Origin: Bacteroidia bacterium
GTDB taxonomy: Bacteria; Bacteroidota; Bacteroidia; SpSt-205
DNA: 64,000 bases
Assembly: GCA_026414975.1 (NCBI GenBank)
Contig: JAOAHZ010000001.1
Coordinates: forward strand, 326,086 to 390,085
Direction of reading: 5' to 3'
The stretch's first letter is position 1, and each line of letters opens with the position of its first letter. The position numbers and the translations under genes are program-made. The notes under the pieces were generated by a model. It worked only from the letters and a program-made list of their open reading frames with translations. It did not search any database and had not been told where the DNA came from. Shown one piece after another: positions 2,475-60,156 of the stretch.

Positions 2475-2505
2475 TTGAGTACCACAAAATAAACATATTT
2501 GTGCA

Positions 2506-3444
2506 GTGCTATTAGAGCAGCTCGTAGGTGCCGCTCAAAAGATTGTGATAGGTCAGCGAGAATCGTTGGAGCATCTTTGGACGGCCTTAGTGGCAGGTGG
2601 GCATGTTTTATTAGAAGGTGTGCCTGGTGTGGCTAAGACGCTGATGGCGAGCACCATCGCTCGTCTATCGGGATTAGAGTTTCGGCGCGTGCAGTTTACG
2701 CCTGATATGCTCCCTTCAGACCTGACAGGAGGCTTGGTATATGAAGGACCCGGGCGCTTCACAGTGCGTAAAGGACCCATATTTACTCAGGTACTTTTAG
2801 CTGATGAAGTGAATCGGGCTCCAGCCAAAGTACAGAGTGCTCTGCTGGAGTCTATGCAGGAGGGCCAGGTTACCATCGGAGAGGAGAGTTATCCTTTGCC
2901 TAAGCCGTTTTGGGTATTGGCGACCCAGAATCCCATAGAGCAGGAGGGTACGTATGCCCTTCCCGAGGCTCAGGTAGATCGGTTTCTCTTCCGCGTGGAG
3001 GTCTCCTACCCAACGAGTGAGGAGGAAGAAGAGATTTTGCGGCGATGGGCTCGTCATCAGTATCCTGAGCCGCCTGCGCCCCTCCTTTCTGCTTCAAAGG
3101 TATTAGACTATCAAGATCAAGCCAACCGAGTAGAAGTGACTCAGCGGCTGGAGCAGTACATAGTGCGATTAGTACGAGCTACTCGGGCGCCTGAAGCCGC
3201 TGGTATTAAGGGCTGGCAGCATAAAATAGCTTATGGGGCTTCGCCCCGCGCAGCTTTAGCTCTTCACCGAGCGGCACGAGCTCGGGCCTTTCTCTTAGGA
3301 CGCTCTGCTGTGCTGCCCGAAGACATCAAGGCTGTGGCCCTTCCCGTCTTACGACATCGGATTATTCTATCTTACAGCGCTTTAGCCGAGGGCATCTCAT
3401 CCGACTCCTTCATTCAATCACTCCTTTCGGCTATTCCTTATTGA
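2506..3444 (+). CDS. MoxR family AAA+ ATPase
   Basis: GHVLLEGVPGVAKT Walker A, RVQFTPDMLPSD, LADEVNRAPAKVQSALLE, ATQNPIEQEGTY. Confidence 0.95.
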   Translation: MLLEQLVGAAQKIVIGQRESLEHLWTALVAGGHVLLEGVPGVAKTLMASTIARLSGLEFRRVQFTPDMLPSDLTGGLVYEGPGRFTVRKGPIFTQVLLADEVNRAPAKVQSALLESMQEGQVTIGEESYPLPKPFWVLATQNPIEQEGTYALPEAQVDRFLFRVEVSYPTSEEEEEILRRWARHQYPEPPAPLLSASKVLDYQDQANRVEVTQRLEQYIVRLVRATRAPEAAGIKGWQHKIAYGASPRAALALHRAARARAFLLGRSAVLPEDIKAVALPVLRHRIILSYSALAEGISSDSFIQSLLSAIPY

Positions 3445-3445
3445 T

Positions 3446-4681
3446 ATGAAACGCGCTGCGCCCGACTGGTTGCTTTACTTTCTGGCTTTCACTCTAATGA
3501 GTGTAGGTATCCTGAACCTTTACTCTATAGAGGATTTTCCAGCCTGGAGTTGGAAGTACGCATATGTGAGGCAGTTTACATGGGCTGGTATCAGTGTATT
3601 AGCCATGGTCTTGGCTAGCCTTATAGAGGGACAAGTCTGGCGCTACTTTGCTTATACTCTGTATGGTCTTGGGGTAGCTGTTATGCTCCTTACGGCGGTT
3701 ACCGCTCGAGAAATCAACGGGGCTCGAGCATGGTTGAGCATCGGTCCCCTTCAGATTCAACCGGCGGAGTTTATGAAGATAGCTACGGCTCTGGCGCTCG
3801 CGGCTTATCTAACGCGTTATGACTTTCGTTGGGGACAGTGGCGCGACCGCCTCATGGTGGGTGTACTGATTGGGGTGCCTATGGCTCTCACTTTACTGCA
3901 GAGTGATACGGGTACAGCTCTGACTTTTGCCGCCTTTTTGGTGCCTTTGTATCGATGGGGCCTATCCATTTGGGTCATCCTAATACCCGTTATACTGGGG
4001 GGGCTGGCGTTTATGACCCTTCTGTATCCATGGGTCTACATAGCTTCCATCCTAACCGTTCTATTGGCTCTAGTTTACTTTTTTATCCTTAAGAGGCGCT
4101 ATCTAAGCCTTCATATCGCTCTGGCTGTCCTACTTTGGGTATGGCTTGGGTTTTCAGGATATCTTTACCATGAGGTTTTGGCACCGCATCAGCGGCAGCG
4201 TATAGAAGTGCTTTTGGATCCGTACAAAGACCCTCTGGGTTCAGGGTGGAATACCATTCAAGCTCGGGTTGCTTTAGTAGCAGGCGGCTTGACAGGTCAA
4301 GGTTATGGCAAGGGCCTTCAGAGTAAGTTAGATTTCATTCCGCAGCGGCACACGGACTTTGCCTATTGTAGCATTGCAGAAGAGTGGGGGTGGTTAGGGG
4401 GGGTGGTAGTCATAAGTCTGTACCTCTTTTTTCTGCTGCGTATCGCATGGGTGGCTGAAAGTACAAATAATCGCTTTGCCCTGCTGTATGGATATGCTTT
4501 ATCCGCTCTACTCTGGATACATTTACTGATCAATGTAGCTATGATTGTGGGACTACTCCCTGTAGTTGGGATTCCCCTAATCTTCATTAGTTATGGGGGC
4601 TCCTCTTGGGTAGCGATAGGATGGGGGCTGGGTATTTTGCAAAGCTTTTATCGTGAGCGCTGGATGCGTCTATTTGGATAG
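3446..4681 (+). CDS. rodA: Rod shape-determining SEDS protein RodA
   Basis: GARAW, IQPAEFMK, DTGTA, IPQRHTDF, EEWG, GIPLIFISYGGSS; polytopic membrane protein. Confidence 0.9.
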   Translation: MKRAAPDWLLYFLAFTLMSVGILNLYSIEDFPAWSWKYAYVRQFTWAGISVLAMVLASLIEGQVWRYFAYTLYGLGVAVMLLTAVTAREINGARAWLSIGPLQIQPAEFMKIATALALAAYLTRYDFRWGQWRDRLMVGVLIGVPMALTLLQSDTGTALTFAAFLVPLYRWGLSIWVILIPVILGGLAFMTLLYPWVYIASILTVLLALVYFFILKRRYLSLHIALAVLLWVWLGFSGYLYHEVLAPHQRQRIEVLLDPYKDPLGSGWNTIQARVALVAGGLTGQGYGKGLQSKLDFIPQRHTDFAYCSIAEEWGWLGGVVVISLYLFFLLRIAWVAESTNNRFALLYGYALSALLWIHLLINVAMIVGLLPVVGIPLIFISYGGSSWVAIGWGLGILQSFYRERWMRLFG

Positions 4682-5230
4682 AAGGGCTTGTAAAAGCGGC
4701 TCTTCAGTTATCTCTGATAAAAGAGCGGGTTCTTGGTGGATACATTTCTCCAGTAGTTCAGCTGCTTCAGCGGTGCGTCCTAACCGAGCTAAAAATAATG
4801 CCCTGTAGTAAAGCAGTTCAGGGGTTTGCTGAGGTAGCTCACTGGCGCGTTGGAGAGCTTCTTCCGCAGTTTGTGTATCGCCAAAATGCATGGCCCAAAA
4901 TGCTTTATGGGCCCACCAGCGGGGATTCGTAGAGTCCTGCTTAAGAAGTTCATCTAACACATGATACGCTTCTCTGACGCGATTTTGCTTAAGGAGCTCT
5001 TCGTAATGCGAGCGCAAAGCAGGTAGATAAGTTGGGCAAACAAGTCTACACTGTACCAGAGCGGAATAGGCCTCGGGGTCTCCCAGCTTCTTAAGTAAGC
5101 GGTATTTCTCATACCACAGCTCAGGGCTATTCGGAAAAAGACTAAGCCCTACATAAAGGGGTGTAAGAGCTTCTCTTAGCAGGCCTTCTTCACTTAGCCG
5201 AAAGCTCTGCCCCAAGTACTCGGCGACCAT
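4670..5230 (-). CDS. Tetratricopeptide repeat protein
   Basis: TPR-like helices (PELWYEK, PRWWAHKA, PELLYYRA). Start moved to ATG 5230 because the track's TTG lies inside a TAACTTTG promoter element. Confidence 0.75.
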   Translation of the reverse strand: MVAEYLGQSFRLSEEGLLREALTPLYVGLSLFPNSPELWYEKYRLLKKLGDPEAYSALVQCRLVCPTYLPALRSHYEELLKQNRVREAYHVLDELLKQDSTNPRWWAHKAFWAMHFGDTQTAEEALQRASELPQQTPELLYYRALFLARLGRTAEAAELLEKCIHQEPALLSEITEEPLLQALLSK

Positions 5231-5292
5231 GACTAAGAACAAAGTTAGACAAAAGTCGTACCTCTCAAAACCATCTATGCCTTAAGCATAAA

Positions 5293-5456: not shown

Positions 5457-5464
5457 TATCTTTG
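5457..5464 (+). promoter_or_regulatory. Bacteroidota -7 element TATCTTTG
   Basis: Exact TAnnTTTG, 4 nt before GTG 5469. Confidence 0.55.
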
Positions 5465-5468
5465 TCCT

Positions 5469-5654
5469 GTGAAAAAGATGTACCCAGAAGTTCTCCCTTT
5501 GTCTTCGGGAGAGGGCAGCTGCCTGCTCATAAAATGGATTTCACAGCGTGTAGTCGGTTTGATTTGTAGGTTTGAGGGGGGGGCTCTCCCTATAGGGCAG
5601 ACGGGGGGCTCAGCTCTTGGGTTATACTTCCAACCCTCCCGAGGACTTGATTGA
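5469..5654 (+). CDS. Possible small protein (61 aa) or leader ORF
   Basis: No recognisable family. Supported only by the -7 element 4 nt upstream and by the stop overlapping the PAP2 start. Confidence 0.3.
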   Translation: MKKMYPEVLPLSSGEGSCLLIKWISQRVVGLICRFEGGALPIGQTGGSALGLYFQPSRGLD

Positions 5655-8463: not shown

Positions 8464-8471
8464 TACCTTTG
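8464..8471 (+). promoter_or_regulatory. -7 element TACCTTTG of miaB
   Basis: Exact TAnnTTTG, 7 nt before ATG 8479. Confidence 0.65.
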
Positions 8472-8478
8472 TGAAAAT

Positions 8479-9858
8479 ATGGCACTGGCGCATGAGCGAG
8501 TATTCGGCCAGCGAGCGGACCTGCTTCCTGTGGCGGCGTACAAAGCCTACATAGAGACCTACGGCTGCCAGATGAACTTTGCGGATAGCGAACTGGTAGC
8601 GGGGATTTTGCAAAATACGGGATACGGCTTTACCCAGCAGCCCGAGGATGCGGACCTCGTGCTCATCAATACCTGTGCGATCCGAGAGCACGCAGAAGAG
8701 AAAATCTGGCAAAGGCTAAGGTACTTTACTTCGCTGAAACGGCAGCGTCCTCACTTGATTATAGGGGTGATTGGCTGCATGGCTGAGCGCCTCAAAAAAA
8801 GGCTACTGGATGAGGCTCCCGTGGTGGATTTGATAGCCGGCCCAGACTCCTATCGGTATTTGCCCCAGCTTATTCGGCAGGTGGAGAGTGGGACTAAAGC
8901 AGTACATGTGCTTCTTTCCCGAGAGGAGACGTACGCTGATGTGGCACCCTTGCGACTCTCACCCAATCGCGTCAGCGCCTACATTTCCATTATGCGGGGC
9001 TGTAATAATATGTGCTCGTTTTGCATTGTGCCTTTCACGCGGGGGCGGGAGCGAAGCCGACCTTGGGAAAGCATCGTAGAGGAGGTGATTCATTTGGCTG
9101 AGGCGGGTTATAGGGAGATTACCCTTTTAGGGCAGAATGTAGACTCCTACGAGGACCGAGGGGTGCGCTTTGCTCATCTTTTAGCGAAAGTAGCTGAGGC
9201 CGCCCCCCAGGTGTGGATTCGTTTCGCCACCTCTCATCCTAAGGACATGCAGGATGAAGTTTTAGAGACGATAGCTCAACATCCTAATCTTACACCCTAC
9301 ATCCATTTGCCGGTACAGGCAGGGAGTGATGCTGTTCTACAGCGCATGAATCGCGGCTACACCGCCGAATGGTATCTCCAGCGAGTGGAAGCGATCCGAC
9401 GCTATCTGCCTGATGCGGTGGTTTCTACAGATATTATTGTGGGCTTCTGTGGAGAGACGGAAGCGGATTTTGAAGAAACTTTGAAGCTGATGGAAGCGGC
9501 TCAGTTTGACTCGGTCTATCAGTTCATGTATTCAGAACGGCCAGGCACGTTTGCTGCGCGGCGGTATGCTGACGATATTCCACCTGAAGTGAAAAAAGAG
9601 CGGTTAGAGCGAGTGATTCAATCAGCTCAGGCGCTGAGCTTAGCCCGCAATCGCCTCCAAATAGGGACGCGGCAGCGCGTGCTGTTAGAGAAACCTTCAC
9701 GGCGTGACCCAAAAGACTTTGTGGGTCGTACCTTTTCTGGACGCACGACAGTGGTCCGAGGAGCAGCTGCTTTCGCTAATCCTGGCGACATAGTTTTAGC
9801 AGAGATTACCGACGCTACTTCAGCTACGCTTATCGGCTATGTATCATGTCCTAACTGA
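8479..9858 (+). CDS. miaB: tRNA-2-methylthio-N6-dimethylallyladenosine synthase
   Basis: TYGCQMN, NTCAIRE, radical SAM CNNMCSFC, C-terminal TRAM domain. Confidence 0.97.
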   Translation: MALAHERVFGQRADLLPVAAYKAYIETYGCQMNFADSELVAGILQNTGYGFTQQPEDADLVLINTCAIREHAEEKIWQRLRYFTSLKRQRPHLIIGVIGCMAERLKKRLLDEAPVVDLIAGPDSYRYLPQLIRQVESGTKAVHVLLSREETYADVAPLRLSPNRVSAYISIMRGCNNMCSFCIVPFTRGRERSRPWESIVEEVIHLAEAGYREITLLGQNVDSYEDRGVRFAHLLAKVAEAAPQVWIRFATSHPKDMQDEVLETIAQHPNLTPYIHLPVQAGSDAVLQRMNRGYTAEWYLQRVEAIRRYLPDAVVSTDIIVGFCGETEADFEETLKLMEAAQFDSVYQFMYSERPGTFAARRYADDIPPEVKKERLERVIQSAQALSLARNRLQIGTRQRVLLEKPSRRDPKDFVGRTFSGRTTVVRGAAAFANPGDIVLAEITDATSATLIGYVSCPN

Positions 9859-13356: not shown

Positions 13357-14024
13357 TAGAATGGATCTTTCCTCGGTTCTGCGTGAGCTGTGATGCGCCT
13401 CTCTTGCCTTCAGAAAAGGAGGGGGCTTGCCTGAAATGTCTTTTAGAGCTTCCTAAGACGGATTTCTGGTTTTTTCCCTGTGCGAATGAGGGCTACTATC
13501 GCCTTGCTCCTCATGCACCTAACCTACGTGGGGTGGTATGTGGATTTTGGTATGGGGTGGGAAGTCCGCTTCGGCGATGGATACAAGCGGCAAAATATGA
13601 AGGGCAACCTCGTCTCTTGTATGCTGCAGCTCGGCACATGGCTGCTTTGAGCGAGCGATATTTGCCTTTATCGGAGATTCAGGGCATCTTGCCAATACCC
13701 ATATCGGCTCTCAGGTGGCGCAAACGGGGCTATAATCAAGCTGAATGGGCTGCACGAGGTTTCTCAGAAGGGTGGAATATACCCCTTCTTAGTCGGCACT
13801 GGGTTCGTCGCCCTAGCTCGGGTTCTCAACTAGGGCGAAAGCAGACAGCTCGCTGGATAGAACTGGAGGGAGAGTTTCGGTGTGTTCGCCCGCTGCCTTC
13901 CGTAGTGGCGGTAGTGGATGATGTACTGACGACGGGGGCAACGCTGGCGGCAGCGCTGCGCAGCCTACCCGCATCTACGGCGGCTTGGGTACTGACCGTT
14001 GGCATCACCCAGCGTCGTCGCTAA
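13353..14024 (+). CDS. ComF family protein (zinc ribbon + PRTase)
   Basis: CVSC..CLKC, RGYNQA, VVDDVLTTGATL. Confidence 0.9.
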   Translation: MIEWIFPRFCVSCDAPLLPSEKEGACLKCLLELPKTDFWFFPCANEGYYRLAPHAPNLRGVVCGFWYGVGSPLRRWIQAAKYEGQPRLLYAAARHMAALSERYLPLSEIQGILPIPISALRWRKRGYNQAEWAARGFSEGWNIPLLSRHWVRRPSSGSQLGRKQTARWIELEGEFRCVRPLPSVVAVVDDVLTTGATLAAALRSLPASTAAWVLTVGITQRRR

Positions 14025-14029
14025 CTTTG
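14022..14029 (+). promoter_or_regulatory. -7 element TAACTTTG of pdhB
   Basis: Exact TAnnTTTG that includes the comF stop codon; 4 nt before ATG 14034. Confidence 0.6.
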
Positions 14030-14033
14030 CCGT

Positions 14034-15017
14034 ATGGCCATTCTACAGTTACGGGAAGCGCTGCGTGCGGCGTTGAGAGAGGAGATGCAGCGCGACCCTC
14101 GTGTCTTCCTTATGGGAGAAGAGGTAGGTGAGTATAACGGGGCCTACAAGGTCAGCGAAGGCCTGTTAGCTGAGTTTGGACCTCAACGCGTGATTGATAC
14201 ACCTATCTCTGAGTTAGGCTTTGCTGCTATAGGGGTTGGCGCAGCTATGGTGGGCCTGCGTCCAGTGATAGAGTTCATGACCTTCAACTTTGCTCTCCTG
14301 GCTATTGATCAAATCGTCAATCACGCCGCTAAGATGCTTCATATGAGTGGGGGTCAGTTTTCGATTCCTATTGTTTTTCGCGGTCCGAGCGGTTCAGCTG
14401 GTCAACTCGCTCAACAGCATTCTCAATCATTTGAAAACTGGTATGCAAATGTACCTGGTCTCAAAGTGGTGTCTCCGAGCACTCCTCGGGATGCTAAAGG
14501 GCTTCTCAAGAGTGCCATTCGGGATGAGGACCCCGTGATTGTAATGGAGTCCGAGCTTATGTATGGCATGAAGGGGGAAGTGCCGGAGGACTCTGATTTT
14601 CTCATACCGATTGGGGTAGCCGATATCAAGCGGCCTGGTACAGATGTAACCATAGTTGCATTTGGCAAAATGGTCCATGTAGCCTTAGAGGCAGCTCAAG
14701 CCCTCGAGCAGGATGGTTTGTCTGCGGAGGTTATAGACTTGCGCAGCTTGAGACCGATAGATTATGCAACGATTATTCAGTCGGTACAGCGTACCAATCG
14801 ACTGGTAGTAGTAGAGGAGTCTTGGCCTTTGGCCGGATTGGCGGCGGAGGTGGCTTTTGCGGTGCAACGCTGGGCATTTGACTATTTAGATGCTCCGATT
14901 GTTCGGATCACGGGGGCCGACACACCGATGGCTTATGCCCCTACGCTGGTAGAAGCTTTTTTACCTAACCCTAAAAAGGTGGTGGAGGCGGCGAAGTATG
15001 TATCCTACCGGCTCTGA
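14034..15017 (+). CDS. pdhB: Pyruvate dehydrogenase E1 beta subunit
   Basis: GEEVGEYNGAYKVS, DTPISE, EFMTFNF, QHSQ, AFDYLDAP. Confidence 0.96.
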   Translation: MAILQLREALRAALREEMQRDPRVFLMGEEVGEYNGAYKVSEGLLAEFGPQRVIDTPISELGFAAIGVGAAMVGLRPVIEFMTFNFALLAIDQIVNHAAKMLHMSGGQFSIPIVFRGPSGSAGQLAQQHSQSFENWYANVPGLKVVSPSTPRDAKGLLKSAIRDEDPVIVMESELMYGMKGEVPEDSDFLIPIGVADIKRPGTDVTIVAFGKMVHVALEAAQALEQDGLSAEVIDLRSLRPIDYATIIQSVQRTNRLVVVEESWPLAGLAAEVAFAVQRWAFDYLDAPIVRITGADTPMAYAPTLVEAFLPNPKKVVEAAKYVSYRL

Positions 15018-17590: not shown

Positions 17591-17599
17591 ATAGCCCTA

Positions 17600-17629
17600 C
17601 AAAGGTACAAGGAAATCGGCATACATTTG
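17600..17629. promoter_or_regulatory. Divergent -7 elements
   Basis: TACCTTTG on - (17600-17607, 9 nt to ATG) and TACATTTG on + (17622-17629, 7 nt to ATG). Confidence 0.65.
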
Positions 17630-17636
17630 TGCTTAT

Positions 17637-21949: not shown

Positions 21950-21975
21950 GCGTCAAAGCTACGCATTTTTGTCCG
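21950..21975. promoter_or_regulatory. 26-nt symmetric bidirectional promoter
   Basis: 4 nt + TAGCTTTG(-) + 2 nt + CATTTTTG(+) + 4 nt fills the whole tatA/nspC spacer. Confidence 0.65.
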
Positions 21976-45143: not shown

Positions 45144-45285
45144 GGTTTGTCATACACCATGGCTACTGGTTGGCTCGGAAAGGATCAGATAAACGGTGCT
45201 GACCGGGATGCAAGTCCATTTTTCTTGCAGGCAGGGTGATAGGGGTACGATTTAGCGCTTGGTTGGATGTGTAGTTTTGCCTGAT

Positions 45286-47271
45286 ATGAGAGTAAATAGG
45301 TGGGGACAGGAAAGCCTATGTAAGATGACTTGCCTTCTGGCTGTAGCAACAGCCGTAGTCGGCTATAAGGCAGGAGCGCAGCCCCCACCACCCAAGGGAG
45401 TCTCTAAACGCGCTTACGACCTTTACTTGCAGGCGGTAAGATTAGCTCAGGCCCGACAAGAAGAGCGAGCCCTTCTTGTTTTGGAGGAGGTGCTCAAGGC
45501 GGAGCCAGCCTACGAGGAGGCCCTCTTGCTCCAAGGTAAGCTTCAAGTCAGCCGGCAAGCCTACAGAGAAGCGAAGGAAACAGGACGCCGCCTCTTATCC
45601 CTGCGTAATGCCTCGGCCAAAGGTACCGCTTGGGCTTTGTACTTCATGGGCAAAGGATACATGTCGGAAATGGCCTACGACTCGGCCGAAGCGGTATGGC
45701 GACGATTCGTTTTGGCTGCGGTCGGGCATCTTCCCCGTTCCCTTCAGGACGAAGGGGCTATCCTCCTAAGTCAAAGTCAAAGCGCCGCTGAGCTAGTGAA
45801 GCGACCCATTCCCTTTCATCCTCGGAACTTAGGTGCAGCGGTAAATAGCCCCGCCGAAGAATACCTCCCTAGTCTAACCGCCGATGGCCGAAGGTTGTAC
45901 TTCACTTCACGACGACGGAAACCCGATCAGCCTGTCAATCCTCTGACAGGACCTGATGAAGACTTGTACTGGAGCGAAAGAGACCCTGAAACAGGGGCTT
46001 GGCTTCCGGCTCAGCGAATGCCTACCCCGATTAGCTCTCATAAAAACGAAGGAGCGGCCTTCTTTTCATCGGATGGGCAGTGGGCGTTTATCACCTTATG
46101 TGACCGCGCTGAGGGGCTGGGGTCTTGCGACCTCTATTTTTCAGAGTTGAAGGGGCTTATGTGGTCGGAGCCCCGCAACCTGGGACCTGAAGTCAATAGC
46201 CCCCATTGGGACTCGCACCCTTCCTTGACGCATGATAGAAAGAGGTTATACTTTGCCTCGGGTCGTCCCGGCGGCATGGGGGGGGTTGACATTTGGTACT
46301 CTGAGTGGAAGGAGGGGCGCTGGCAAAAGCCCATCAATCTCGGCCCGCCTATCAACACGCCAGGAGACGAATACAGTCCAATGATAGCCGCCGACGGACG
46401 AACCCTCTATTTTGCTTCTAACTATCATCCAGGCATGGGGGGGCAGGATATTTTTGTATCCTACCTCACCGATACTGGATGGACCCAGCCCAAGAATCTG
46501 GGCTATCCGCTCAATACCCCTGCCGATGAGCAAACGCTTTGCTTAGACGCTCGCGGGCACCTAGCGTATATCGCCTTGGTGCGTCCAGAAGGCTTTGGGA
46601 AAGAGGATATTTATGAGTTTGAGTTATGGGAGGGGGTAAGACCGCAGCTTGGCGCTACATACGTGCGGGGGCGGGTAGTGGATGCTGCTACCCAGCGACC
46701 TGTTGCTGCCCAAGTCGCCGTCATAGATTTAGAGCGTCGCGATACCATCCGAGCCCTTCGCTGCAACGAAGCAACCGGTGAATTCTTGCTTTCTTTACCT
46801 CTTGGACGGCGCTACGGACTCTTCGCTGAAGCTAAAGGCTATCTGTACTACAGCGGGCACTTTGACTTAGTTCGCAGTGACTCAGCCTATGAGCTTCTTG
46901 TGCCTTTAGAGCGGCTCCAGCAAGGGGCTCGGCTCACTCTGCGAAATGTATTCTTTGACTTTGATAAGGCTGAGCTGAAACCCGAATCTGAAGCTGAACT
47001 ATTGGAAGTGGTACGCTTGCTCCGAATGAACCCTCAGTGGAGGGTGGAGATTGAAGGGCATACAGACAGCATAGGCTCAGCTGGCTACAATCAAGCGCTC
47101 TCCCAGCGCCGAGCTGAGGCTGTTCGGGCTTATTTGATACAGCAGGGCATCTCTCCTGAGCGGCTTACCGCTCGCGGCTATGGCTCCTCTAAGCCGATAG
47201 CCGATAATCGTACCGAGGCGGGACGCGCCCTCAATCGCCGAACCGAGTTGCTCTTCGTTCAGGGAAAATGA
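45286..47271 (+). CDS. TPR + PD40 repeats + OmpA family protein (PorE-like architecture)
   Basis: NLGAAVNS/NLGPEVNS/NLGPPINT/NLGYPLNT repeats, EGHTD..NQALSQRRA, NRRTE; TAGTTTTG 6 nt before ATG 45286. Confidence 0.92.
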   Translation: MRVNRWGQESLCKMTCLLAVATAVVGYKAGAQPPPPKGVSKRAYDLYLQAVRLAQARQEERALLVLEEVLKAEPAYEEALLLQGKLQVSRQAYREAKETGRRLLSLRNASAKGTAWALYFMGKGYMSEMAYDSAEAVWRRFVLAAVGHLPRSLQDEGAILLSQSQSAAELVKRPIPFHPRNLGAAVNSPAEEYLPSLTADGRRLYFTSRRRKPDQPVNPLTGPDEDLYWSERDPETGAWLPAQRMPTPISSHKNEGAAFFSSDGQWAFITLCDRAEGLGSCDLYFSELKGLMWSEPRNLGPEVNSPHWDSHPSLTHDRKRLYFASGRPGGMGGVDIWYSEWKEGRWQKPINLGPPINTPGDEYSPMIAADGRTLYFASNYHPGMGGQDIFVSYLTDTGWTQPKNLGYPLNTPADEQTLCLDARGHLAYIALVRPEGFGKEDIYEFELWEGVRPQLGATYVRGRVVDAATQRPVAAQVAVIDLERRDTIRALRCNEATGEFLLSLPLGRRYGLFAEAKGYLYYSGHFDLVRSDSAYELLVPLERLQQGARLTLRNVFFDFDKAELKPESEAELLEVVRLLRMNPQWRVEIEGHTDSIGSAGYNQALSQRRAEAVRAYLIQQGISPERLTARGYGSSKPIADNRTEAGRALNRRTELLFVQGK

Positions 47272-50313: not shown

Positions 50314-50321
50314 TAACTTTG
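50314..50321 (+). promoter_or_regulatory. -7 element TAACTTTG
   Basis: Exact TAnnTTTG, 4 nt before ATG 50326. Confidence 0.65.
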
Positions 50322-50325
50322 GAGA

Positions 50326-50949
50326 ATGAAAGTTCTCCTATGTACGGGTGTTTTGATGGGCTTTGTATGGTCGCAGAAGGCCCAGTGTATCTTGGTTAAG
50401 CTCAAGCATGCCTCTGACCTCACGGCCGACAACGCCTTGCATCCTTCTTGGGAGGAGAAAAGTGTCCGCCTCAAACTACCTGACAACTTAGAAGAGTCCT
50501 TTATAGACGCAGAGGATGAAGCTACAGACCGCTCCATTGCAGAATGTTTTACGCCTCAGCTCAAACTTATCACCGAGCGATACACCTATATCATAAGTTT
50601 AGCTTGCCAAAATCTCATCGCCTACCAGAATACTTCCCCTTACAAGCCATCTCCCCGTCGTGTTCAAAGTCCTATAAGCTTTACCGAGGATTTTCGCTAT
50701 TTCCTGGAGAAATCCATTGAAAAATACATGAAAGTACCCCCTCGTCGACTTTATGCTGAATATTCGCTGGCTTATATTCCACCTACTCAAGGGGTCATCA
50801 AGTATGAAGAGTTGGACTTTCTCCTCAATCAGTCTCAACTGATGGAAGAAGAGGACGACGATGAGGACCCAGAGCCTGATTTGCCCAGCGAGTCTCCAAG
50901 TGATTGGATGGGAGAGGAACTGGAAGAAGCCGATGGAGAGAATGACTGA
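50326..50949 (+). CDS. Secreted hypothetical protein with acidic tail
   Basis: Signal ending VWSQ; C-terminus EEEDDDEDPEPD..EELEEADGEND. Confidence 0.7.
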   Translation: MKVLLCTGVLMGFVWSQKAQCILVKLKHASDLTADNALHPSWEEKSVRLKLPDNLEESFIDAEDEATDRSIAECFTPQLKLITERYTYIISLACQNLIAYQNTSPYKPSPRRVQSPISFTEDFRYFLEKSIEKYMKVPPRRLYAEYSLAYIPPTQGVIKYEELDFLLNQSQLMEEEDDDEDPEPDLPSESPSDWMGEELEEADGEND

Positions 50950-52989: not shown

Positions 52990-53001
52990 GACCTTTGCGG
53001 T

Positions 53002-53625
53002 ATGCCCTATTGGGTAGGGATCACGGGCGGAAGTGCGTCAGGGAAGACATACCTATTAGAACTGCTTCGCAAAGCCCTGCCTTCCAATAAGGTAACCTTC
53101 ATCTCTATCGATCACTACTATAAGGACCTGTCCTTGCAACCAAAAGACCCTGAGGGACGCATCAACTTTGACCACCCAGAAGCGATAGATTACGAGAAGC
53201 TCTATCACGACTTTAGGGCGCTTAGGTCAGGGCAATCTGTAACTCAACGGGAATATACCTTCAATCAGCCTGGTGTAGAGCCTCGGCTTTTGACTTTCAG
53301 GCCTGCTCCAGTTCTGATTGCGGAGGGGCTATTTCTTTTTTACTGGGCGCCGATCCGGGACTTATTTGACCTGCGGATATTCATGGAGGCAGAGGAGCCG
53401 TATCGCTTTATTCGTCGCCTTCAGCGAGATCAGAAGGAGCGCGGCTACTCGGCCGACTCTATCACGCACCAGTATCTTACGCAAGTTTTACCCTCGTATG
53501 AGCAGTTTGTGGCGCCATTGCGCCAGTACTCTCACCTTATCATTCAAAATCGGTACGGAGACCTCATGCCTGCGCTGAGCGTTCTGCTCAGTCATCTTAA
53601 GGGCGTAGTAGAGCGAAGCTCATAA
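53002..53625 (+). CDS. udk: Uridine kinase
   Basis: GITGGSASGKT, DHYY, NFDHPEA, RRLQRD..ERG. Confidence 0.93.
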   Translation: MPYWVGITGGSASGKTYLLELLRKALPSNKVTFISIDHYYKDLSLQPKDPEGRINFDHPEAIDYEKLYHDFRALRSGQSVTQREYTFNQPGVEPRLLTFRPAPVLIAEGLFLFYWAPIRDLFDLRIFMEAEEPYRFIRRLQRDQKERGYSADSITHQYLTQVLPSYEQFVAPLRQYSHLIIQNRYGDLMPALSVLLSHLKGVVERSS

Positions 53626-54022: not shown

Positions 54023-56035
54023 TCATCTTTCTGCAAAATCCAGTCCAATAATCCTAAACTCCGCCCGACGATTAGCTTGCTCATCTGCATCAGAGAGTTC
54101 AGGATAGATCAGGGGTTGCGACTCTCCATAGCCAACAGATGTAAGACGACGGGGGTTGATCCCTTTTTGCGTCAAATAATTCACCACCGATTTAGCTCGG
54201 TTATTGGAGAGGCGGATATTATACTGCTCGCTGCCATTGGTATCCGTATGAGCTCCAATCAGGATACGAAGGGAAGGATTATTTTGAAGGAGGACAACCA
54301 GTCTATCTAGCTCAGCTGCCGCATCAGGGCGAATGTCATACTTATCAAAATCAAAGTAGATATTTTGCAGGACAATCGGGCGAGCTATTTCAATGCGATC
54401 CAAGTAAATGTCTATGTCGGCTTCCAGCTCCATGGACTTTGAGGCGTCACGGGTGGAGACAGCTACTTCGTTTGCGAGGTACTCTGGAGCATTGCCAATT
54501 AGACGATAATCCTTTCCAGGTTGTAGCGTGAAGCGGTAGCGAGCGCTCTGGTCTGTGTTGAAGGTATCGAGAGGAATGAGCCTGCCTTCTTTGGCTTCGT
54601 AGAGCGTGACGGTGGCAAAGGGGATAGGGAGCTTAGTAGTACCGTCGCGGACTGTACCTTGTACGGCAAGCTCTATCTTTACGACGGGGATCCGTTTGAT
54701 ATAGTAGATATCATCTCGCCCTCGCCCGCCGGGTCGGTTAGAGGCTAAGAAACCCAAGGAGTCTTGCCTGACCCAGAAAAGGGAAAAGTCATCGTAGGAG
54801 GAATTAATAGGAGAACCAAGGTTTTTAGGGGGTTGCCAGGAGGCTAAACGTCCTTCGGCTCGGAAAATATCATAACCTCCTAAGCCAGGATGTCCATCTG
54901 AGGCGAAGTACAGCGTCTTCCCGTCTCGTCCTACATGGGGGTAAATTTCGTTGAAAGGCGTGTTAATGATTTTGCCCGCATGGACGGGGGCCCCCCATTC
55001 TTTGCCCACCTTTTGAGCGTACCAAATATCCGTTCCACCCAAACCTCCATCTCGGTCAGAAATGAAATACATAATGTTTCCGTCGGGAGTGAGCGTCGGC
55101 TGTGCATCGTAAGTTGGGACGAGTTTCTTCTTGCCCTTGGAATTCACGGCCACTTCTCGTTTGCCTGCTAAGGCTTCTATTTTCTCAAAGGGGCCCCATT
55201 CTTTCTTCTGAGGGTCATAAGTACTCTGGTAAATACCACACCCCCAGTACTTGTGGTATTTTCCTTGACCACAGATGGTATAATACATTGTGAGTCCATC
55301 GGGCGCGATGACTGCGCCTCCATCGTTGGCTGCGGTGTTAACCTTCTTGCCGAGATTTTGCACTTTGCTAACCACCTTGCCGAGGAAAGCTGTGTCGCTC
55401 TTGAGCTGAACAACCCACAAGTCCGAGTAAGTCGGCTCCCCATACTCATAAAAGCGCTCTCGACTTTGCCCCCCCGTTCGATGGCTGGTGAAAATCAGAA
55501 AGGTGTCGCTCTTGACGACAAAAAGCGTAGGGGCATATTCGCTTACTTGGGAATTTACTGCAGCAAGGGCGCGCAACTCATACTCGGGTTTTTCGGCTAA
55601 GAGGCGTTCAGCTAATGTGCATCCTTCTATCTCTATCTCAGCCTGCTTACGCAGAATATCCTGAGCCTTGTGCCGGGATAAAAACTCTTGCAAGGTCTTC
55701 TTAGCTTCGGCATATTGCCCGAGTTTTTTCTGAGCGATGCCCAAGTCTAAATAGATCGTGTCACAGGTTTCTGCATTGATAGCCAGGGCTTTCTGATAGG
55801 CTTCTACAGCTCTTTCCGTTTCGTTAGTGTACCAGTAGCAACGAGCCAAACGATAAGCGGCATATTGATTATTCTGATCTAAGGAGAGAACCTGCTTATA
55901 TAGCTCTGCTGCCTTTTCTGGATTGCGGTTGGTGTAGTATTCCTTGTCTGCTTCGGCGAGCAGTTTGCGTACCTTAGACGACTGGGCAAAGAGAGTCGCC
56001 AGCCCAGCACTTAGTAATAGTGCATACAGTCGCAT
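54023..56035 (-). CDS. TPR + PD40 + OmpA family protein (PorE-like architecture)
   Basis: Signal LFAQ, TPRs, SDRDGGLGGTDIW, SDGHPGLGGYDIF, NIYFDFDK, AHTD, NRRAEF. Confidence 0.93.
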   Translation of the reverse strand: MRLYALLLSAGLATLFAQSSKVRKLLAEADKEYYTNRNPEKAAELYKQVLSLDQNNQYAAYRLARCYWYTNETERAVEAYQKALAINAETCDTIYLDLGIAQKKLGQYAEAKKTLQEFLSRHKAQDILRKQAEIEIEGCTLAERLLAEKPEYELRALAAVNSQVSEYAPTLFVVKSDTFLIFTSHRTGGQSRERFYEYGEPTYSDLWVVQLKSDTAFLGKVVSKVQNLGKKVNTAANDGGAVIAPDGLTMYYTICGQGKYHKYWGCGIYQSTYDPQKKEWGPFEKIEALAGKREVAVNSKGKKKLVPTYDAQPTLTPDGNIMYFISDRDGGLGGTDIWYAQKVGKEWGAPVHAGKIINTPFNEIYPHVGRDGKTLYFASDGHPGLGGYDIFRAEGRLASWQPPKNLGSPINSSYDDFSLFWVRQDSLGFLASNRPGGRGRDDIYYIKRIPVVKIELAVQGTVRDGTTKLPIPFATVTLYEAKEGRLIPLDTFNTDQSARYRFTLQPGKDYRLIGNAPEYLANEVAVSTRDASKSMELEADIDIYLDRIEIARPIVLQNIYFDFDKYDIRPDAAAELDRLVVLLQNNPSLRILIGAHTDTNGSEQYNIRLSNNRAKSVVNYLTQKGINPRRLTSVGYGESQPLIYPELSDADEQANRRAEFRIIGLDFAER

Positions 56036-56042
56036 GCCGCCA

Positions 56043-56088
56043 CAAATATAGATAAAAGGCTAAGACCCTTGCGCATTCTTTACCTTTG
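56043..56088. promoter_or_regulatory. Divergent -7 elements
   Basis: TATATTTG on - (7 nt to ATG 56035) and TACCTTTG on + (4 nt to ATG 56093). Confidence 0.65.
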
Positions 56089-56092
56089 CTTT

Positions 56093-58666
56093 ATGTGGTC
56101 AACGGCTCGGGTGCGAAAGACTTTTCTGGATTTTTTCAGTGAAAGAGGACATTTGATAGTTCCTTCGGCCCCCTTAGTCAATAAACACGATCCCACGCTT
56201 TTCTTCGTGAATGCTGGCATGAATCCATTCAAGGATGTGTTTATGGGTTTCAAGGAGGCACCTGCTCCTCGGGTAGCTGATACTCAGAAGTGCCTCCGTG
56301 TTTCAGGCAAACACAACGACCTTGAAGAAGTGGGGCATGACACCTATCATCACACCTTTTTTGAGATGTTGGGCAACTGGTCCTTTGGAGATTACTTTAA
56401 GGCTGAGGCTATCGCTTGGGCCTGGGAGCTCCTGACAAAGGTCTATCAAATCCCCGAAGAACGCTTATATGTTACGGTATTTGGAGGGGATGAAGAATGG
56501 GGACTGCCCAAAGATGAAGAGGCTTACGCTCTGTGGCTACAATATGTGCCGACCGAACGGATTCGGTTCTTTGGGAGAAAGGATAACTTTTGGGAAATGG
56601 GGGACACGGGCCCTTGCGGCCCCTGCACAGAGATACATATAGACCTGCGTCCTGATGCTAAGGACTCGGCGGCTTCTCTCCTCAATACAGGTAATCCACT
56701 CGTGATAGAGCTTTGGAATCTAGTCTTTATCCAGTACAATCGCCGTAGTGATGGGTCTTTGGAGCTCCTTCCGATGAAGAGTGTAGATACAGGCATGGGT
56801 TTAGAGCGGCTTGCCATGGTTCTCCAAGGGCAGACTTCCACTTATGACATAGACCTCTTTCGGCGCTTGCGCTCTGCTGTAGAGGAGAAGACAGGCGTTC
56901 GATACGGAACGGGTGGCCCGACCGATGTAGCCATACGGGTAGTTTGCGACCACATTCGTGCGTTAGGCTTTGCCATGGCAGATGGACAGGTGCCCAGCAA
57001 TACGGGTGCAGGGTATGTTCTACGCCGCTTGCTGCGGCGTGCTGTGCGATATGGGTATCAGTTTCTCGGTTGCCAGCAGCCCTTCCTGCATACGCTGATT
57101 CCATTATTAGTGGAGCTATACAGAGACACCTTTCCAGACCTTGAAGAACAGATGGATACCATCCAGCGGGTTATCGCCGGCGAGGAGGAGAGCTTTCTAC
57201 GAACCTTAGGGCGTGGTATGGCTCGCTTAGAAGGGTTTCTCTCGCAGCATCGGGGGAATGTTATTCCGGGCGAAGTGGCTTTTGAGCTCTATGATACATA
57301 CGGATTTCCATTGGATTTGACACAGCTCATTGCCCGCGAGCGAGGGCTTTCAGTAGATGTGGAGGGGTATGAGCGCGCTTTGGCTGCGCAAAAAGCTCGA
57401 AGCCGACAAGCCACTCACCGAGATTTCGGAGACTGGTTAGAAGTAGAAGAAGGCGAGCATTCTCACTTCGTGGGATACGATGCCTATGAGGCCCGTGTGC
57501 TTATTATACGCATGCGCCAAGTAGAAGGAGCTAAGGGACGAGAGTACCATGTCGTTCTTGACAAGACTCCTTTCTATCCAGAGGGCGGAGGACAAGTTAG
57601 CGATGTAGGGTATCTCCGACGGGAGCGAGACCGCTTAGAGGTCATCCATGTGTATCGGGAGCAGGACAGCATCATCCACGTTTTGAATGCGCTGCCCGAA
57701 AATCCCGAGGGAGAATGGTATGCGGCTATAGATATTGGTCGTCGGAAAGCCACCTCGCAGCATCATACGGCTACCCATCTCTTACATGCCGCCTTGCGTG
57801 AGGTATTGGGGCCTCATGTTCGGCAAAGCGGCTCTCTGGTAGCCCCCGACCGACTGCGCTTTGATTTTTCTCACCCTCAAAAAGTAACCCCCGACGAGCT
57901 GAATACGATAGAACGGATCGTGAATGATAAAATAGCCGCAGCCCTCCCCCGCCGAGAATATAGAGACCTTCCCTACGAAGTCGCTTTGGCCAAGGGAGCT
58001 CTGGCCTTTTTCGGTGAGAAGTACGGAGAGCGGGTGCGCATGATAGAGTTTGGGGGGAAGTTCTCTCGAGAACTGTGTGGGGGGACTCATGTTTCCAATA
58101 CCTTAGAGCTGCGTTACTTCAAAATCCTAAGTGAGTCCGCCAGCGCAGCAGGCATACGACGGATAGAGGCCATCACCGGTGAGGCTTACTTTAGTTGGGT
58201 GCAAAGCCACTTTCAAGAGATGGAGCAGATTCGCGGCCTTCTCAAGCACCCCCCTCATCTTCTGAAGGCTGTGGAGAAGCTGATAGCCGAAAAGGCTGAA
58301 CTGGATCGTCGTCAGGCTGCCTGGCTGCGCTTGTATGCTCAGATGCTCTTGGCTCGGTGGCAGCTGCGCTCCCTTTATCTTGAACAGGTAGAGCTGCCAG
58401 ATGGCGTTGAATTACGGGACCTTCTGCAAGCTCTCCAGCATCAGCATCCTGAAGCCACCTTTATTCTCCTCGTTCCAGAAAAGTCAGGCTATGGTATAGG
58501 TGTAGCGGCCCCCCGAGAGGCGCAGCGAATCTTAGCCAGTATATGCGGCGCCTTAGGAGGTCGAGGAGGCGGACAGGCCAAGCTTGCCCTTGGCAAGCTC
58601 CCCTCCTTATCAGACCCCGTGAAGCAGATTTCGTCGTTTCTGCCTGCAATTCAGAGTCCTTTGTAA
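56093..58666 (+). CDS. alaS: Alanine--tRNA ligase
   Basis: NAGMNPFK, HHTFFEMLGNWSFGDYFK, DTGMGLER, HTATHLLH, ELCGGTHV. Confidence 0.98.
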   Translation: MWSTARVRKTFLDFFSERGHLIVPSAPLVNKHDPTLFFVNAGMNPFKDVFMGFKEAPAPRVADTQKCLRVSGKHNDLEEVGHDTYHHTFFEMLGNWSFGDYFKAEAIAWAWELLTKVYQIPEERLYVTVFGGDEEWGLPKDEEAYALWLQYVPTERIRFFGRKDNFWEMGDTGPCGPCTEIHIDLRPDAKDSAASLLNTGNPLVIELWNLVFIQYNRRSDGSLELLPMKSVDTGMGLERLAMVLQGQTSTYDIDLFRRLRSAVEEKTGVRYGTGGPTDVAIRVVCDHIRALGFAMADGQVPSNTGAGYVLRRLLRRAVRYGYQFLGCQQPFLHTLIPLLVELYRDTFPDLEEQMDTIQRVIAGEEESFLRTLGRGMARLEGFLSQHRGNVIPGEVAFELYDTYGFPLDLTQLIARERGLSVDVEGYERALAAQKARSRQATHRDFGDWLEVEEGEHSHFVGYDAYEARVLIIRMRQVEGAKGREYHVVLDKTPFYPEGGGQVSDVGYLRRERDRLEVIHVYREQDSIIHVLNALPENPEGEWYAAIDIGRRKATSQHHTATHLLHAALREVLGPHVRQSGSLVAPDRLRFDFSHPQKVTPDELNTIERIVNDKIAAALPRREYRDLPYEVALAKGALAFFGEKYGERVRMIEFGGKFSRELCGGTHVSNTLELRYFKILSESASAAGIRRIEAITGEAYFSWVQSHFQEMEQIRGLLKHPPHLLKAVEKLIAEKAELDRRQAAWLRLYAQMLLARWQLRSLYLEQVELPDGVELRDLLQALQHQHPEATFILLVPEKSGYGIGVAAPREAQRILASICGALGGRGGGQAKLALGKLPSLSDPVKQISSFLPAIQSPL

Positions 58667-58745
58667 AGTCCAAGGGACGCAAAGAGGATCAGGATAGGGC
58701 TGTGCGGCTCAGGTAGAGCAAACTTTTTGGCTTACCTTTAGGCGT

Positions 58746-60032
58746 ATGAACCGCTGGATAGCCTGCCTTTTAGGCTTTGTAAGCCTACTCGCAGCTCAGA
58801 CAGCCTACGAAAAAGATATCCAAGTAGCCTTCTCCAAGGCAAAGAAGCAAAAGCGCCCCCTTTGGATTATGGTTTCGGCGACCTGGTGCGGTCCCTGCAA
58901 GGTCGTAGAACAGCGTGTCCTCACGGACCCACGATTTGTAGAGGCTCTGAACCGAGATTTTGTACCCCTCAAAGTGTATGCTGCCAGTGATGAAGAAAGT
59001 ACTCCGGGGGGCGACTCGCTGGCTAAGGTGTATAATGTGAAAGTTTTTCCCACCTTTCTAGGGGTGGAGCCATCGGGTGAGCTTTTCTACCGAGCGGAGG
59101 GGGTTATTCAAGACTCCGAGAACCCTACGGCTTCTTTGACTGAGGGCTTTCTGCGAAGTCTAGAGCAGGCAAAAACCGCTCGCAAGGAACTACCCGAGAT
59201 GCGCCGCCGTTTCCAGAGAGGGGAGCGCTCTTTGGATTTTCTGCGGAGCTACTTGTTGAAGTTAGCGGAGTTGGGTCAGAAAGAGGAGGGTACTAAAGTG
59301 CTTGAAGCCTATCTCAAAGTGGCTAAAACTCCTCGTATAGCTTGGCTGGGTACGCCAGGTTATGTAGGAATTTTAGCTCGCATCAGTGAATGGGGGCCTC
59401 AGTATGCTGAGTATGTGTTTTCTCTGGCAGATACGCTACGCCCGGCCGTTCCCTCGGACTTGTATGAAGCGATCTACATGCCTATTTTAGAAAAGAGCCT
59501 GGTCAAAAAGCTTAGCAGCTCCTCCCGAAAGGAGTGGGATGAGGCGGCAAGCATAGTAGAGCAGTTTATAAAGGAGCACCGCAGCCGCTTCCCTTTTGTA
59601 GAGAGCATGGCTCTAACGGCACTCTGGCAAAATGGACTGAAATCACCTAAGCCAGAAACTCGGGCGAAGGCTGCCTCCCTGGCGCTTAGAGCTGTAGCTT
59701 TGGAATGGCCCCTGGAGATTCCTAACGCAGAGGACCGTCAGATCCGAGCCCTAAGCTACAACAACTTGGCTTGGACCTTTTATGAGCAGGTGGAAGACCC
59801 TGATAAGCTCTGGGTAGCCGTGATTTTAGCTAAGCAGGCCCTGGCTTATGCGCCAGATGAATGGCATATTTGGGATACCCTCGGGGCCCTATACTACAAG
59901 CTGGGGCGAAAGCGTGACTCTTTAGAGACTTTGGATAAGGCTATTCAATTGGCTAAGCAGCAGGGCGTGCCAGAGAGTGATTACGAAGATACCTTAAAAC
60001 TGTATCAGAAGGCGATGCAGCTTGGAGATTAG
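58746..60032 (+). CDS. Secreted thioredoxin-fold protein with C-terminal TPR
   Basis: Signal LAAQ, WCGPCK, cis-Pro FPT, NNLAW, DTLGALYYKLG. Confidence 0.85.
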   Translation: MNRWIACLLGFVSLLAAQTAYEKDIQVAFSKAKKQKRPLWIMVSATWCGPCKVVEQRVLTDPRFVEALNRDFVPLKVYAASDEESTPGGDSLAKVYNVKVFPTFLGVEPSGELFYRAEGVIQDSENPTASLTEGFLRSLEQAKTARKELPEMRRRFQRGERSLDFLRSYLLKLAELGQKEEGTKVLEAYLKVAKTPRIAWLGTPGYVGILARISEWGPQYAEYVFSLADTLRPAVPSDLYEAIYMPILEKSLVKKLSSSSRKEWDEAASIVEQFIKEHRSRFPFVESMALTALWQNGLKSPKPETRAKAASLALRAVALEWPLEIPNAEDRQIRALSYNNLAWTFYEQVEDPDKLWVAVILAKQALAYAPDEWHIWDTLGALYYKLGRKRDSLETLDKAIQLAKQQGVPESDYEDTLKLYQKAMQLGD

Positions 60033-60145
60033 GGGGGCTGTCGGTAAGCATTTGCTGATAGTTTGTCCTTGAGGGGTGTATCTTCATCCTTGTGAGGGTG
60101 TAGAGGGGAGGCTGAAAATTTTTCGGGCGAGACAAGGTGGTCTCC

Positions 60146-60153
60146 TACTTTTG
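60146..60153 (+). promoter_or_regulatory. -7 element TACTTTTG
   Basis: Exact TAnnTTTG, 3 nt before ATG 60157. Confidence 0.6.
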
Positions 60154-60156
60154 CAT

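Follow-up and report, generated by a model that had tools for sequence, protein, structure and literature searches.

Translation initiation in Bacteroidota does without Shine-Dalgarno (SD) pairing. The anti-SD sequence is present but sequestered, and the three mapped species show leadered mRNAs and a Kozak-like, A-rich context upstream of their start codons. Here we analyse a window of 64,000 nucleotides (nt) from a Bacteroidia bacterium (assembly GCA_026414975.1, contig JAOAHZ010000001.1, positions 326,086 to 390,085 of the forward strand), in which the box TAnnTTTG is repeatedly found directly before start codons, together with the genome that holds it. The closest described counterparts are the housekeeping promoters of mapped Bacteroidota, for which the figures given here and below are those of excerpts from the cited papers. 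The box occupies positions -12 to -5 in Flavobacterium psychrophilum (PMC9723704). In Flavobacterium johnsoniae it is followed by the transcription start site after 4-5 nt, with T-12, A-11, T-8, T-7, T-6 and G-5 conserved and a consensus of TAHHTTTG, G being nearly absent at the variable positions (PMC6847099). Bacteroides thetaiotaomicron has a median 5’ untranslated region (UTR) of 32 nt with ~3.7% of 5’ UTRs below 10 nt (PMC7366714), 5.5% of the mRNAs are leaderless in F. psychrophilum (PMC9723704), and 87% of the leaders exceed 10 nt in F. johnsoniae (PMC6847099). Taken together, the mapped species have median 5’ UTRs of 32 and 24 nt and 3.7%, 5.5% and 13% leaderless or short-leadered transcripts (PMC7366714, PMC9723704, PMC6847099). 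Genome surveys point in the same direction: out of 37 Bacteroidetes/Chlorobi genomes, Zheng et al. 2011 list one (2.4%) with leaderless genes, using a method that detects Pribnow-like boxes only (PMC3160421), and GeneMarkS-2 places 408 of 450 Bacteroidetes/Chlorobi genomes into the non-SD group B (PMC6028130). Some of the 42 genomes outside group B may already belong to the leaderless group C. A full-text literature search returned no report of a leaderless-dominant Bacteroidota lineage among the matches listed.

The genome analysed here seemingly follows a different layout. We propose, with a probability of roughly 85%, that the box is the -7 element of sigma-A promoters and that ~70% of the genes in need of a promoter are leaderless or nearly so, a reading that is based on the sequence evidence set out below. 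The assembly holding the window comprises 2.21 Mb in 58 contigs with 51% G+C and is 96.7% complete. Genes were called with our own caller, which scores stop-to-stop open reading frames (ORFs) by codon usage and yields 1799 genes. The gap is defined as the number of nt between the box TAnnTTTG and the start codon. Independently of any gene model, all 1512 boxes on both strands were collected and the distance to the following ATG was recorded. An ATG is found at gap 4 after 196 of the 1512 boxes, and 167 of these 196 open an ORF of at least 100 amino acids (aa). Gaps of 3, 5, 6, 7, 8 and 9 give 42, 83, 59, 60, 49 and 39 ATGs, and the background at gaps 10-40 amounts to 13-40 each. Four permuted control motifs are flat, with 7-20 ATGs at gap 4 and 0-5 ORF-opening ATGs at gaps 0-40. 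GTG likewise peaks after the box (61 at gap 4, 30 at gap 5). The original prediction, made from the window, had put the modal gap at 4 nt but had used the motif to pick some of its starts. This bias is removed by the model-free count, gap 4 is the genome-wide mode with 167 ORF-opening ATGs and 61 GTGs, and with 196 ATGs at this distance the enrichment is even stronger genome-wide than in the window.

TTG shows no peak, with a single case at gap 4. Among the called genes 491 of 1799 carry an exact box at their start (381 ATG and 110 GTG), set against 12 TTG candidates; among internal genes the nearest in-frame start is a TTG in 94 of 752. Such a restriction to ATG and GTG fits a transcription start at a purine. 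GTG accounts for 27-31% of the starts at gaps 4-5, at which the start codon would form the 5’ end, vs 9-12% at gaps 6-9, and the base preceding the ATG at gaps 6-9 is T in 43-75%. Gap-4 sites have a pyrimidine at box+4 (position -1) in 76% and a purine at box+5. Among the 516 start-adjacent ATG/GTG sites, G makes up only 10-11% and 5-6% at the two variable positions of the box, where C or T are favoured. Neither coding sequences nor tRNA 5’ ends begin nearer than 3-4 nt to the box, so that both distributions have a sharp left edge. With the published box at -12 to -5 and a gap of 4, +1 (box+5) would coincide with the first base of the start codon, A or G. This placement is in line with three facts: the pyrimidine at box+4, the missing TTG and the minimum distance of 3-4 nt. 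We thus infer the position of +1 from the published spacing between box and start site and from the 4-nt left edge.

A promoter is expected to be confined to genes that head a transcription unit. Divergently transcribed genes need a promoter of their own as the upstream neighbour lies on the opposite strand, and 246 of 500 such genes (49%) have an exact box at gap 3-9, compared to 3-6 of 500 for permuted motifs. The box is found at this distance before only 11 of 583 co-directional genes which overlap their upstream neighbour (2%), before 19 of 174 located 0-10 nt behind it (11%) and before 28-55% of those with larger spacers. If up to one mismatch is allowed, 388 of the 500 divergent genes have a box vs 85-114 for the controls, from which ~340-360 genes (~70%) with a real start-adjacent box can be estimated. 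The proposal that the box is a promoter which is not equally common before operon-internal genes is borne out by 49% of divergent vs 2% of overlapping genes, and the sequence tests also support that operon-first genes would mostly be leaderless or have leaders of ≤ 5 nt, given the above placement of +1.

RNA genes lead to the same conclusion. An exact box lies at most 80 nt upstream of 32 of 45 tRNA genes (permuted controls 0-2 of 45), namely before 32 of 34 that are first in their cluster and 0 of 11 within clusters; 11 of the 13 box-less tRNA genes are the second or third of a tRNA cluster. The distance to the mature 5’ end is 4-11 nt in 31 of the 34 cluster-first genes and never below 4 nt, with four genes at gap 4 and most at gaps 6-10 (examples are C11:220537, C34:36792-36864 and C54:51835-51923). 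As the box precedes tRNA genes it cannot be a translation signal. The box thus behaves as a promoter. On this basis tRNA precursors should carry 5’ leaders of 0-7 nt. The tRNA boxes seem to be nearer here than elsewhere: 5 of 6 in a same-genus sample lie at 4-11 nt vs 10-25 nt in other Bacteroidia (4 of 6 and 5 of 12), the numbers being small. A bacterial class A RNase P RNA is encoded in the window (53709-54012, minus strand, 201 bits), 11 nt past the stop codon of the OmpA-like gene at 54023-56035. No exact box is present upstream of it and the only candidate nearby is a one-mismatch box without a gap, which makes the gene unsuitable as a further promoter control. The RNase P RNA is probably co-transcribed and processed.

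The start-adjacent promoter could be real while most mRNA originates from upstream promoters or read-through, such that leadered transcripts dominate and leaderless ones are minor or regulatory. Read-through is plausible for co-directional genes 11-40 nt behind their neighbour, of which 88 of 172 carry an exact box; moreover, one-mismatch or non-consensus promoters may be located further upstream, and the window gene with a putative TTG start at 39883 has its box 26 nt before the first in-frame ATG. Divergent spacers, however, do not allow for co-directional read-through, and of their 272 sense boxes 229 have a gap of 3-9 while only 43 are farther away (27 at gaps of 10-59, 16 at 60-200), with 8-17 in total for six control motifs. 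Spacers of 20-59 nt separate 74 of the 250 divergent pairs, too short for a second promoter outside the neighbouring gene, and 59 pairs have two exact boxes, some of them merely 21-25 nt apart. In the window, divergent spacers of 26-57 nt separate the starts at 2474/2506, 17590/17637, 21949/21976, 34782/34814 and 56035/56093. Spacers as short as these offer no room for leaders. Finally, the genome has 1512 boxes vs 517-996 for permuted motifs, an excess that is roughly matched by the start-adjacent set (516 ATG/GTG and 31 tRNA sites), which indicates few consensus promoters elsewhere. We consider a dominance of leadered transcripts very unlikely.

The validity of the start codons was assessed by homology. 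Alignments to Pfam profiles start only a few residues away from the methionine that the box defines: residue 7 of alanyl-tRNA synthetase (AlaRS) aligns to profile position 2, residue 4 of TatA to 1, residue 5 of the transketolase-fold protein to 4, residue 5 of uridine kinase to 2 and residue 13 of the LD-carboxypeptidase to 1. The box-defined starts are thus supported by homology. Across 16 genomes of the order, AlaRS sequences can be aligned starting with the methionine (MW[ST]T...), and the upstream frame is unrelated save for the in-frame box; identity to the closest named relatives is 47-56%. The alaS box itself is found at gap 4 in 13 and at gap 5 in 2 of 15 genomes of the family with diverged flanks; the gap is 22 nt in the sister family (G013). 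The box genes were also compared to a 320-kb sample of a complete genome from the same genus, which gave 53 orthologue pairs with alignments reaching the N-terminus. Of these, 41 retain an exact box at gap 3-9 (18 of them with the same gap), 3 retain a one-mismatch box and 9 lack a box. Moreover T is enriched at the second codon position in codons 4-9 after box-adjacent ATGs (41-46%), as expected of signal-peptide-like N-termini.

Several observations weigh against our interpretation. About half of the box-associated starts have gaps of 5-9, implying many mRNAs with leaders of 1-5 nt rather than none. Our home-made caller assigns longest-ORF starts to box-less genes and hence inflates the overlapping class. 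The -33 TTTG element, expected ~19-21 nt upstream of the box, was not found: the aligned logo upstream of the box has 0.00-0.05 bits per position, and spacer histograms for TTTG and TTG show no such element apart from a faint excess of TTTG at spacers 17-18 (8 and 5 of 491). It is a weak defining feature of Bacteroidota promoters, given that it is described as 'much less evident' in F. johnsoniae too (PMC6847099). Lastly, orthologue alignments were extended upstream of the box-defined methionine. Of 34 usable ones, 10 begin at -2 to +8 and 8 at -3 or -4, where the box reads in frame, whereas 16 extend upstream by 5 codons or more and 3 start over 8 residues further downstream. Most of the upstream extensions were found on inspection to consist of the in-frame box and gapped sequence of low identity; one extension covers 38 codons of an upstream element that is strongly conserved (23 of 38 identical), another enters the overlapping neighbour gene, and one ungapped, hydrophobic alignment (13 of 30 identical) may reflect a true upstream start. 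These counts carry little weight, as the conserved box can itself be read in frame (Y-L-C-x-M) and adjacent genes also maintain nucleotide conservation.

These cases bear on the possibility of a start-codon artefact, in which the box-adjacent ATG or GTG is not the true start and the proteins begin either downstream (leadered mRNAs) or upstream (box within the gene). In favour of it, 218 of the 491 box-associated starts are not the first in-frame candidate of their ORF, and the extension test yields one apparent upstream start besides the three downstream ones. Against it stand the 167 of 196 gap-4 ATGs that open long ORFs, the Pfam and AlaRS alignments from the box-defined methionine, the T-rich second positions in codons 4-9 and the 44 of 53 orthologue pairs keeping box and start together. 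A general artefact is hence even more improbable than a dominance of leadered mRNAs. The least credible alternative is a non-SD ribosome-binding element acting at the RNA level 4 nt before the start, for although the short, fixed distance, the lack of SD pairing in Bacteroidota and the non-SD motifs reported near starts in the 408 group B genomes (PMC6028130, excerpt) would suit it, the motif avoids overlapping internal genes, precedes cluster-first tRNA genes, is identical to the experimentally defined -7 promoter element and is not complementary to the 16S 3’ tail of the genus.

How, then, are operon-internal genes translated? The SD core is rarer at -18 to -4 of internal starts than expected by chance, with 30 of 343 and 27 of 262 (9-10%) compared to 413 of 3000 random sites (14%). 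Internal genes mostly overlap their upstream gene, 241 of them at -4 and 49 at -1. This suggests termination-reinitiation as the main route for their translation. A 16S gene was not found in the window's own genome, and the 3’ tail was taken from two genomes of the same genus, in which it reads ...GGATTACCTCCTTTCT and keeps the anti-SD core CCTCC. Of the other components that the original prediction had singled out for inspection, bS21 and IF3 are encoded, as are four proteins of the sigma-70 family. Sigma70_r2 has four matches, the best one in an open frame of 297 aa with region 2 ~60 residues from the first methionine. An exact box precedes the ATG of rpsU (bS21) by 6 nt and the GTG of infC by 8 nt (G000:C3:28460-28645 and C11:425740-426265). 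No SD is present upstream of the rpsU ATG; an extended SD on rpsU is described for many Flavobacteriales (PMC9976891, excerpt).

To define the distribution of the layout, genomes were scanned with the pattern TANNTTTGNNNNATG, using the same pattern reversed as control. The class and phylum scans cover the gap-4 pattern only, so that lineages favouring gaps 5-8 are under-detected. The genome itself gives 196 matches (control 9), 13 other genomes of the genus 137-223 (2-23) and three genomes of the second genus of the family 155-204 (7-10). The single genome of the sister family within the order, G013, gives 55 (41). Thus the gap-4 peak is present in 17 of 17 genomes of the family, in an order that comprises only 18 species genomes, and most of the ~610 other Bacteroidota genomes do not show it. 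Within 401 genomes of the class, a tally that counts the own genome, 12 other family genomes and the unpublished G189 and G108 (on which no claim rests), most reach ~1-2.5 times the control. A comparable excess per Mb is found only in family f41 with 284-357 matches in 3 of 3 genomes (75-97). The families f15, f43, f30, f54 and f65 have 3-12-fold ratios at lower density. No genome among 226 from other Bacteroidota classes comes near a comparable excess. In a 275-kb sample of G056 (f41, 35% G+C) the gaps peak at 4 and 5 (16 each). The excess in the AT-rich family f41 (G056, G099 and G135; 35% G+C) points to an independent origin of the box-start layout.

Members of the class with names behave differently. 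Pooling 80 loci of named Bacteroidia (1.4 Mb with 1456 boxes) yields only 13 ORF-opening ATGs at gap 4 vs 167 here, and a broad shoulder is seen at 15-30 nt. The sample of the sister family G013 is mixed: 7, 3, 6 and 8 boxes stand at gaps 5, 6, 7 and 8, and another group is found 20-31 nt from the start. Since the contigs were picked from gap-4 matches, the count of 9 at gap 4 is inflated, and conclusions can be drawn for gaps 5-8 and 20-31 only. We therefore regard the trait as quantitative. In the own family it is both extreme and uniform, and it arose at least one further time within the class. The originally proposed contrast to model Bacteroides and Flavobacterium holds in that published leaders are longer there, yet needs to be qualified by the presence of the trait in another family of Bacteroidia and its weaker, mixed form in the sister family.

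The boxes of the window are compiled in the table below. In number they are only mildly raised, with 40 exact copies of TAnnTTTG vs 28.0 ± 5.0 in 100 shuffles, two of which reach 40. The signal is the position of the box. The 17 exact boxes of the original prediction are all present and belong to these 40. For 16 of them the predicted gap leads exactly to the ATG or GTG of a called gene; the GTG following the box at 5457 is the odd one out, opening only an ORF of 61 aa. The six predicted one-mismatch boxes each have one mismatch and a gap of 4. A chance expectation of ~0.1 exact matches had been estimated, which is of the right order: the four permuted motifs yield 5-15 exact matches per 1799 genes in the same pipeline, or ~0.15-0.45 per 53 window genes, vs 16 for the box.

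Start-adjacent boxes in the window. Positions are those of the 64,000-nt window; the part spans box, gap and start codon.
Box type	Box	Part	Strand	Gap (nt)	Start codon	Gene product and context
exact, TAACTTTG	5240-5247	5228..5247	-	9	ATG 5230	TPR-repeat protein
exact, TATCTTTG		5457..5471	+	4	GTG 5469	61-aa ORF, 386-nt spacer; possibly RNA or leadered mRNA
exact		8464..8481	+	7	ATG 8479	radical-SAM methylthiotransferase-like (UPF0004, Radical_SAM, TRAM)
exact, TAACTTTG		14022..14036	+	4	ATG 14034	transketolase-fold E1 beta-like protein
exact	17600-17607	17588..17607	-	9	ATG 17590	DUF349 protein
exact		17622..17639	+	7	ATG 17637	Usp-like protein
exact	21954-21961	21947..21961	-	4	ATG 21949	TatA
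exact		26196..26213	+	7	ATG 26211	1193-aa protein, type IX secretion system (T9SS) sorting tail
exact		30383..30397	+	4	ATG 30395	946-aa protein
exact	34786-34793	34780..34793	-	3	GTG 34782	LD-carboxypeptidase
exact		34802..34816	+	4	GTG 34814	family-2 glycosyltransferase; 31-nt divergent spacer
exact	39787-39794	39779..39794	-	5	GTG 39781	FadB-like enoyl-CoA hydratase / 3-hydroxyacyl-CoA dehydrogenase
exact		45272..45288	+	6	ATG 45286	OmpA/PD40 protein
exact		50314..50328	+	4	ATG 50326	207-aa protein without Pfam match; 20-nt co-directional spacer
exact	56043-56050	56033..56050	-	7	ATG 56035	TPR/PD40/OmpA protein
exact, TACCTTTG		56081..56095	+	4	ATG 56093	alanyl-tRNA synthetase (alaS)
exact		60146..60159	+	3	ATG 60157	358-aa protein without Pfam match
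one mismatch		2494..2508	+	4	GTG 2506	MoxR-type AAA ATPase; 31-nt divergent spacer
one mismatch		21964..21978	+	4	ATG 21976	decarboxylase-like; 26-nt divergent spacer
one mismatch	24264-24271	24257..24271	-	4	GTG 24259	
one mismatch		24412..24426	+	4	ATG 24424	
one mismatch		24918..24932	+	4	GTG 24930	tyrosyl-tRNA synthetase
one mismatch		52990..53004	+	4	ATG 53002	uridine kinase

Some of these sites deserve a comment. The TAA (14022-14024) that begins the box of the transketolase-fold gene doubles as the stop codon of the upstream ORF 13353-14024, by which the promoter fits into a co-directional spacer of 9 nt. The boxes at 17600 (minus strand) and 17622 (plus strand) stand back to back within a divergent spacer of 46 nt. 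The spacer at 5240-5617 is unusually long for a divergent one (386 nt) and contains G-runs (5573-5610) and a GC hairpin (~5294-5311). It has no Rfam match at gathering thresholds and may harbour a small RNA or belong to a leadered or regulated mRNA. At 39867-39903 (plus strand) a 290-aa gene has an exact box 8 nt ahead of TTG 39883, and its first in-frame ATG (39901) follows the box after 26 nt. The gene either uses a rare TTG start or has one of the few leadered promoters. The 946-aa protein shows a weak match to a T9SS sorting tail (23.7 bits), below the curated cut-off of 27. Two large, paralogue-like outer-membrane proteins with PD40 beta-propeller repeats and a C-terminal OmpA domain are encoded at 45286-47271 (plus strand) and 54023-56035 (minus strand). 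One of them also has TPRs, and both genes have their own start-adjacent box; the one at 56043 is kept across most of the genus, as judged from the alignment by eye.

We propose the following mechanism. TAnnTTTG would act as the -7 element of the housekeeping promoter (sigma-A of the Bacteroides type), placed such that the first base of the functional RNA either is +1 itself or lies 1-5 nt downstream of it. At gaps of 4-5, +1 would be the A or G of ATG or GTG, and at gaps of 6-9 it would lie 1-5 nt upstream. The resulting mRNAs would be translated by direct recognition of the 5’-terminal AUG or GUG and not via an upstream ribosome-binding region, a mode of translation that we infer from the geometry. 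Operon-internal genes, having neither box nor SD, would depend on stop/start overlaps with the upstream gene. The comparisons support this combination, a leaderless organisation built on the Bacteroidota -7 box together with SD-less, overlap-coupled internal genes, as a family-wide feature unlike that of the model species. We see an even chance that the family goes further and is almost fully leader-free, with more than 80% of the sigma-A promoters starting on or within 5 nt of the start codon, near-zero tRNA leaders and stop/start-coupled internal genes.

If this is true, no known bacterial lineage would be more leaderless than this family. The family would moreover offer a test case from nature for initiation on a 5’-terminal AUG or GUG by a ribosome whose anti-SD is occluded and which normally depends on A-rich sequence upstream. 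Such initiation may require an adapted balance of IF2 and IF3 or the use of 70S ribosomes. Translation initiation in Bacteroidota is an open problem, and the lineage would demonstrate that a member of this phylum can rely mainly on leaderless initiation. The own family (f1), the mixed sister family and the second, independent family would provide comparative material for the changes in ribosome, initiation factors and sigma factor behind the switch. In practical terms, gene prediction that relies on ribosome-binding sites will misplace start codons in these genomes, while the box would serve as a precise predictor of start codons and operon heads (491 of 1799 genes).

Compared to the sigma-ABfr/sigma-A promoters of Bacteroidota (Bacteroides fragilis, B. 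thetaiotaomicron, F. johnsoniae and F. psychrophilum; -7 TAnnTTTG, -33 TTTG), the genome shares the -7 consensus with its G-depleted variable positions and, with F. johnsoniae, a weak or absent -33 element. The retained anti-SD and the lack of SD use are further likenesses, and the 297-aa open frame with region 2 is a candidate for a short primary sigma factor of the Bacteroides type, which lacks region 1.1. The difference lies in the distance: in the mapped species the box is tens of nt away from the start codon, whereas 229 of 272 boxes in divergent spacers are located at 3-9 nt here. The second counterpart is group C of GeneMarkS-2 (Actinobacteria, Deinococcus-Thermus), where, according to the excerpts, a promoter box likewise stands at a fixed short distance from operon-first but not internal starts (PMC6028130, PMC3160421), only ATG and GTG occur at the 5’ end, and the trait is genome-wide and lineage-wide. 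Group C differs by a Pribnow box 6-8 nt before the start in place of TAnnTTTG ending 4 nt before it, and by internal and leadered genes that use SD, in contrast to the SD-less, overlap-linked internal genes of this genome. Moreover, 25-50% are quoted by GeneMarkS-2 (PMC6028130) vs the predicted ~70% of promoter-needing genes here. In that last respect the genome resembles the leaderless transcriptomes of archaea (Haloferax, Sulfolobus/Saccharolobus; group D), in many of which a majority of 60-80% of operons is shown or predicted to be leaderless, as stated in the excerpt (PMC6028130). Archaea, however, employ a TATA box ~26 nt upstream and their own initiation factors, as opposed to the bacterial sigma promoter and bacterial ribosome at work here. 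A parallel for the tRNA genes is Nanoarchaeum equitans, which transcribes them without 5’ leaders. The promoter there, and presumably here too, is set such that tRNA transcription begins at or near the mature 5’ end; the present genome differs in that RNase P RNA is present and most of its tRNA boxes imply leaders of 1-6 nt.

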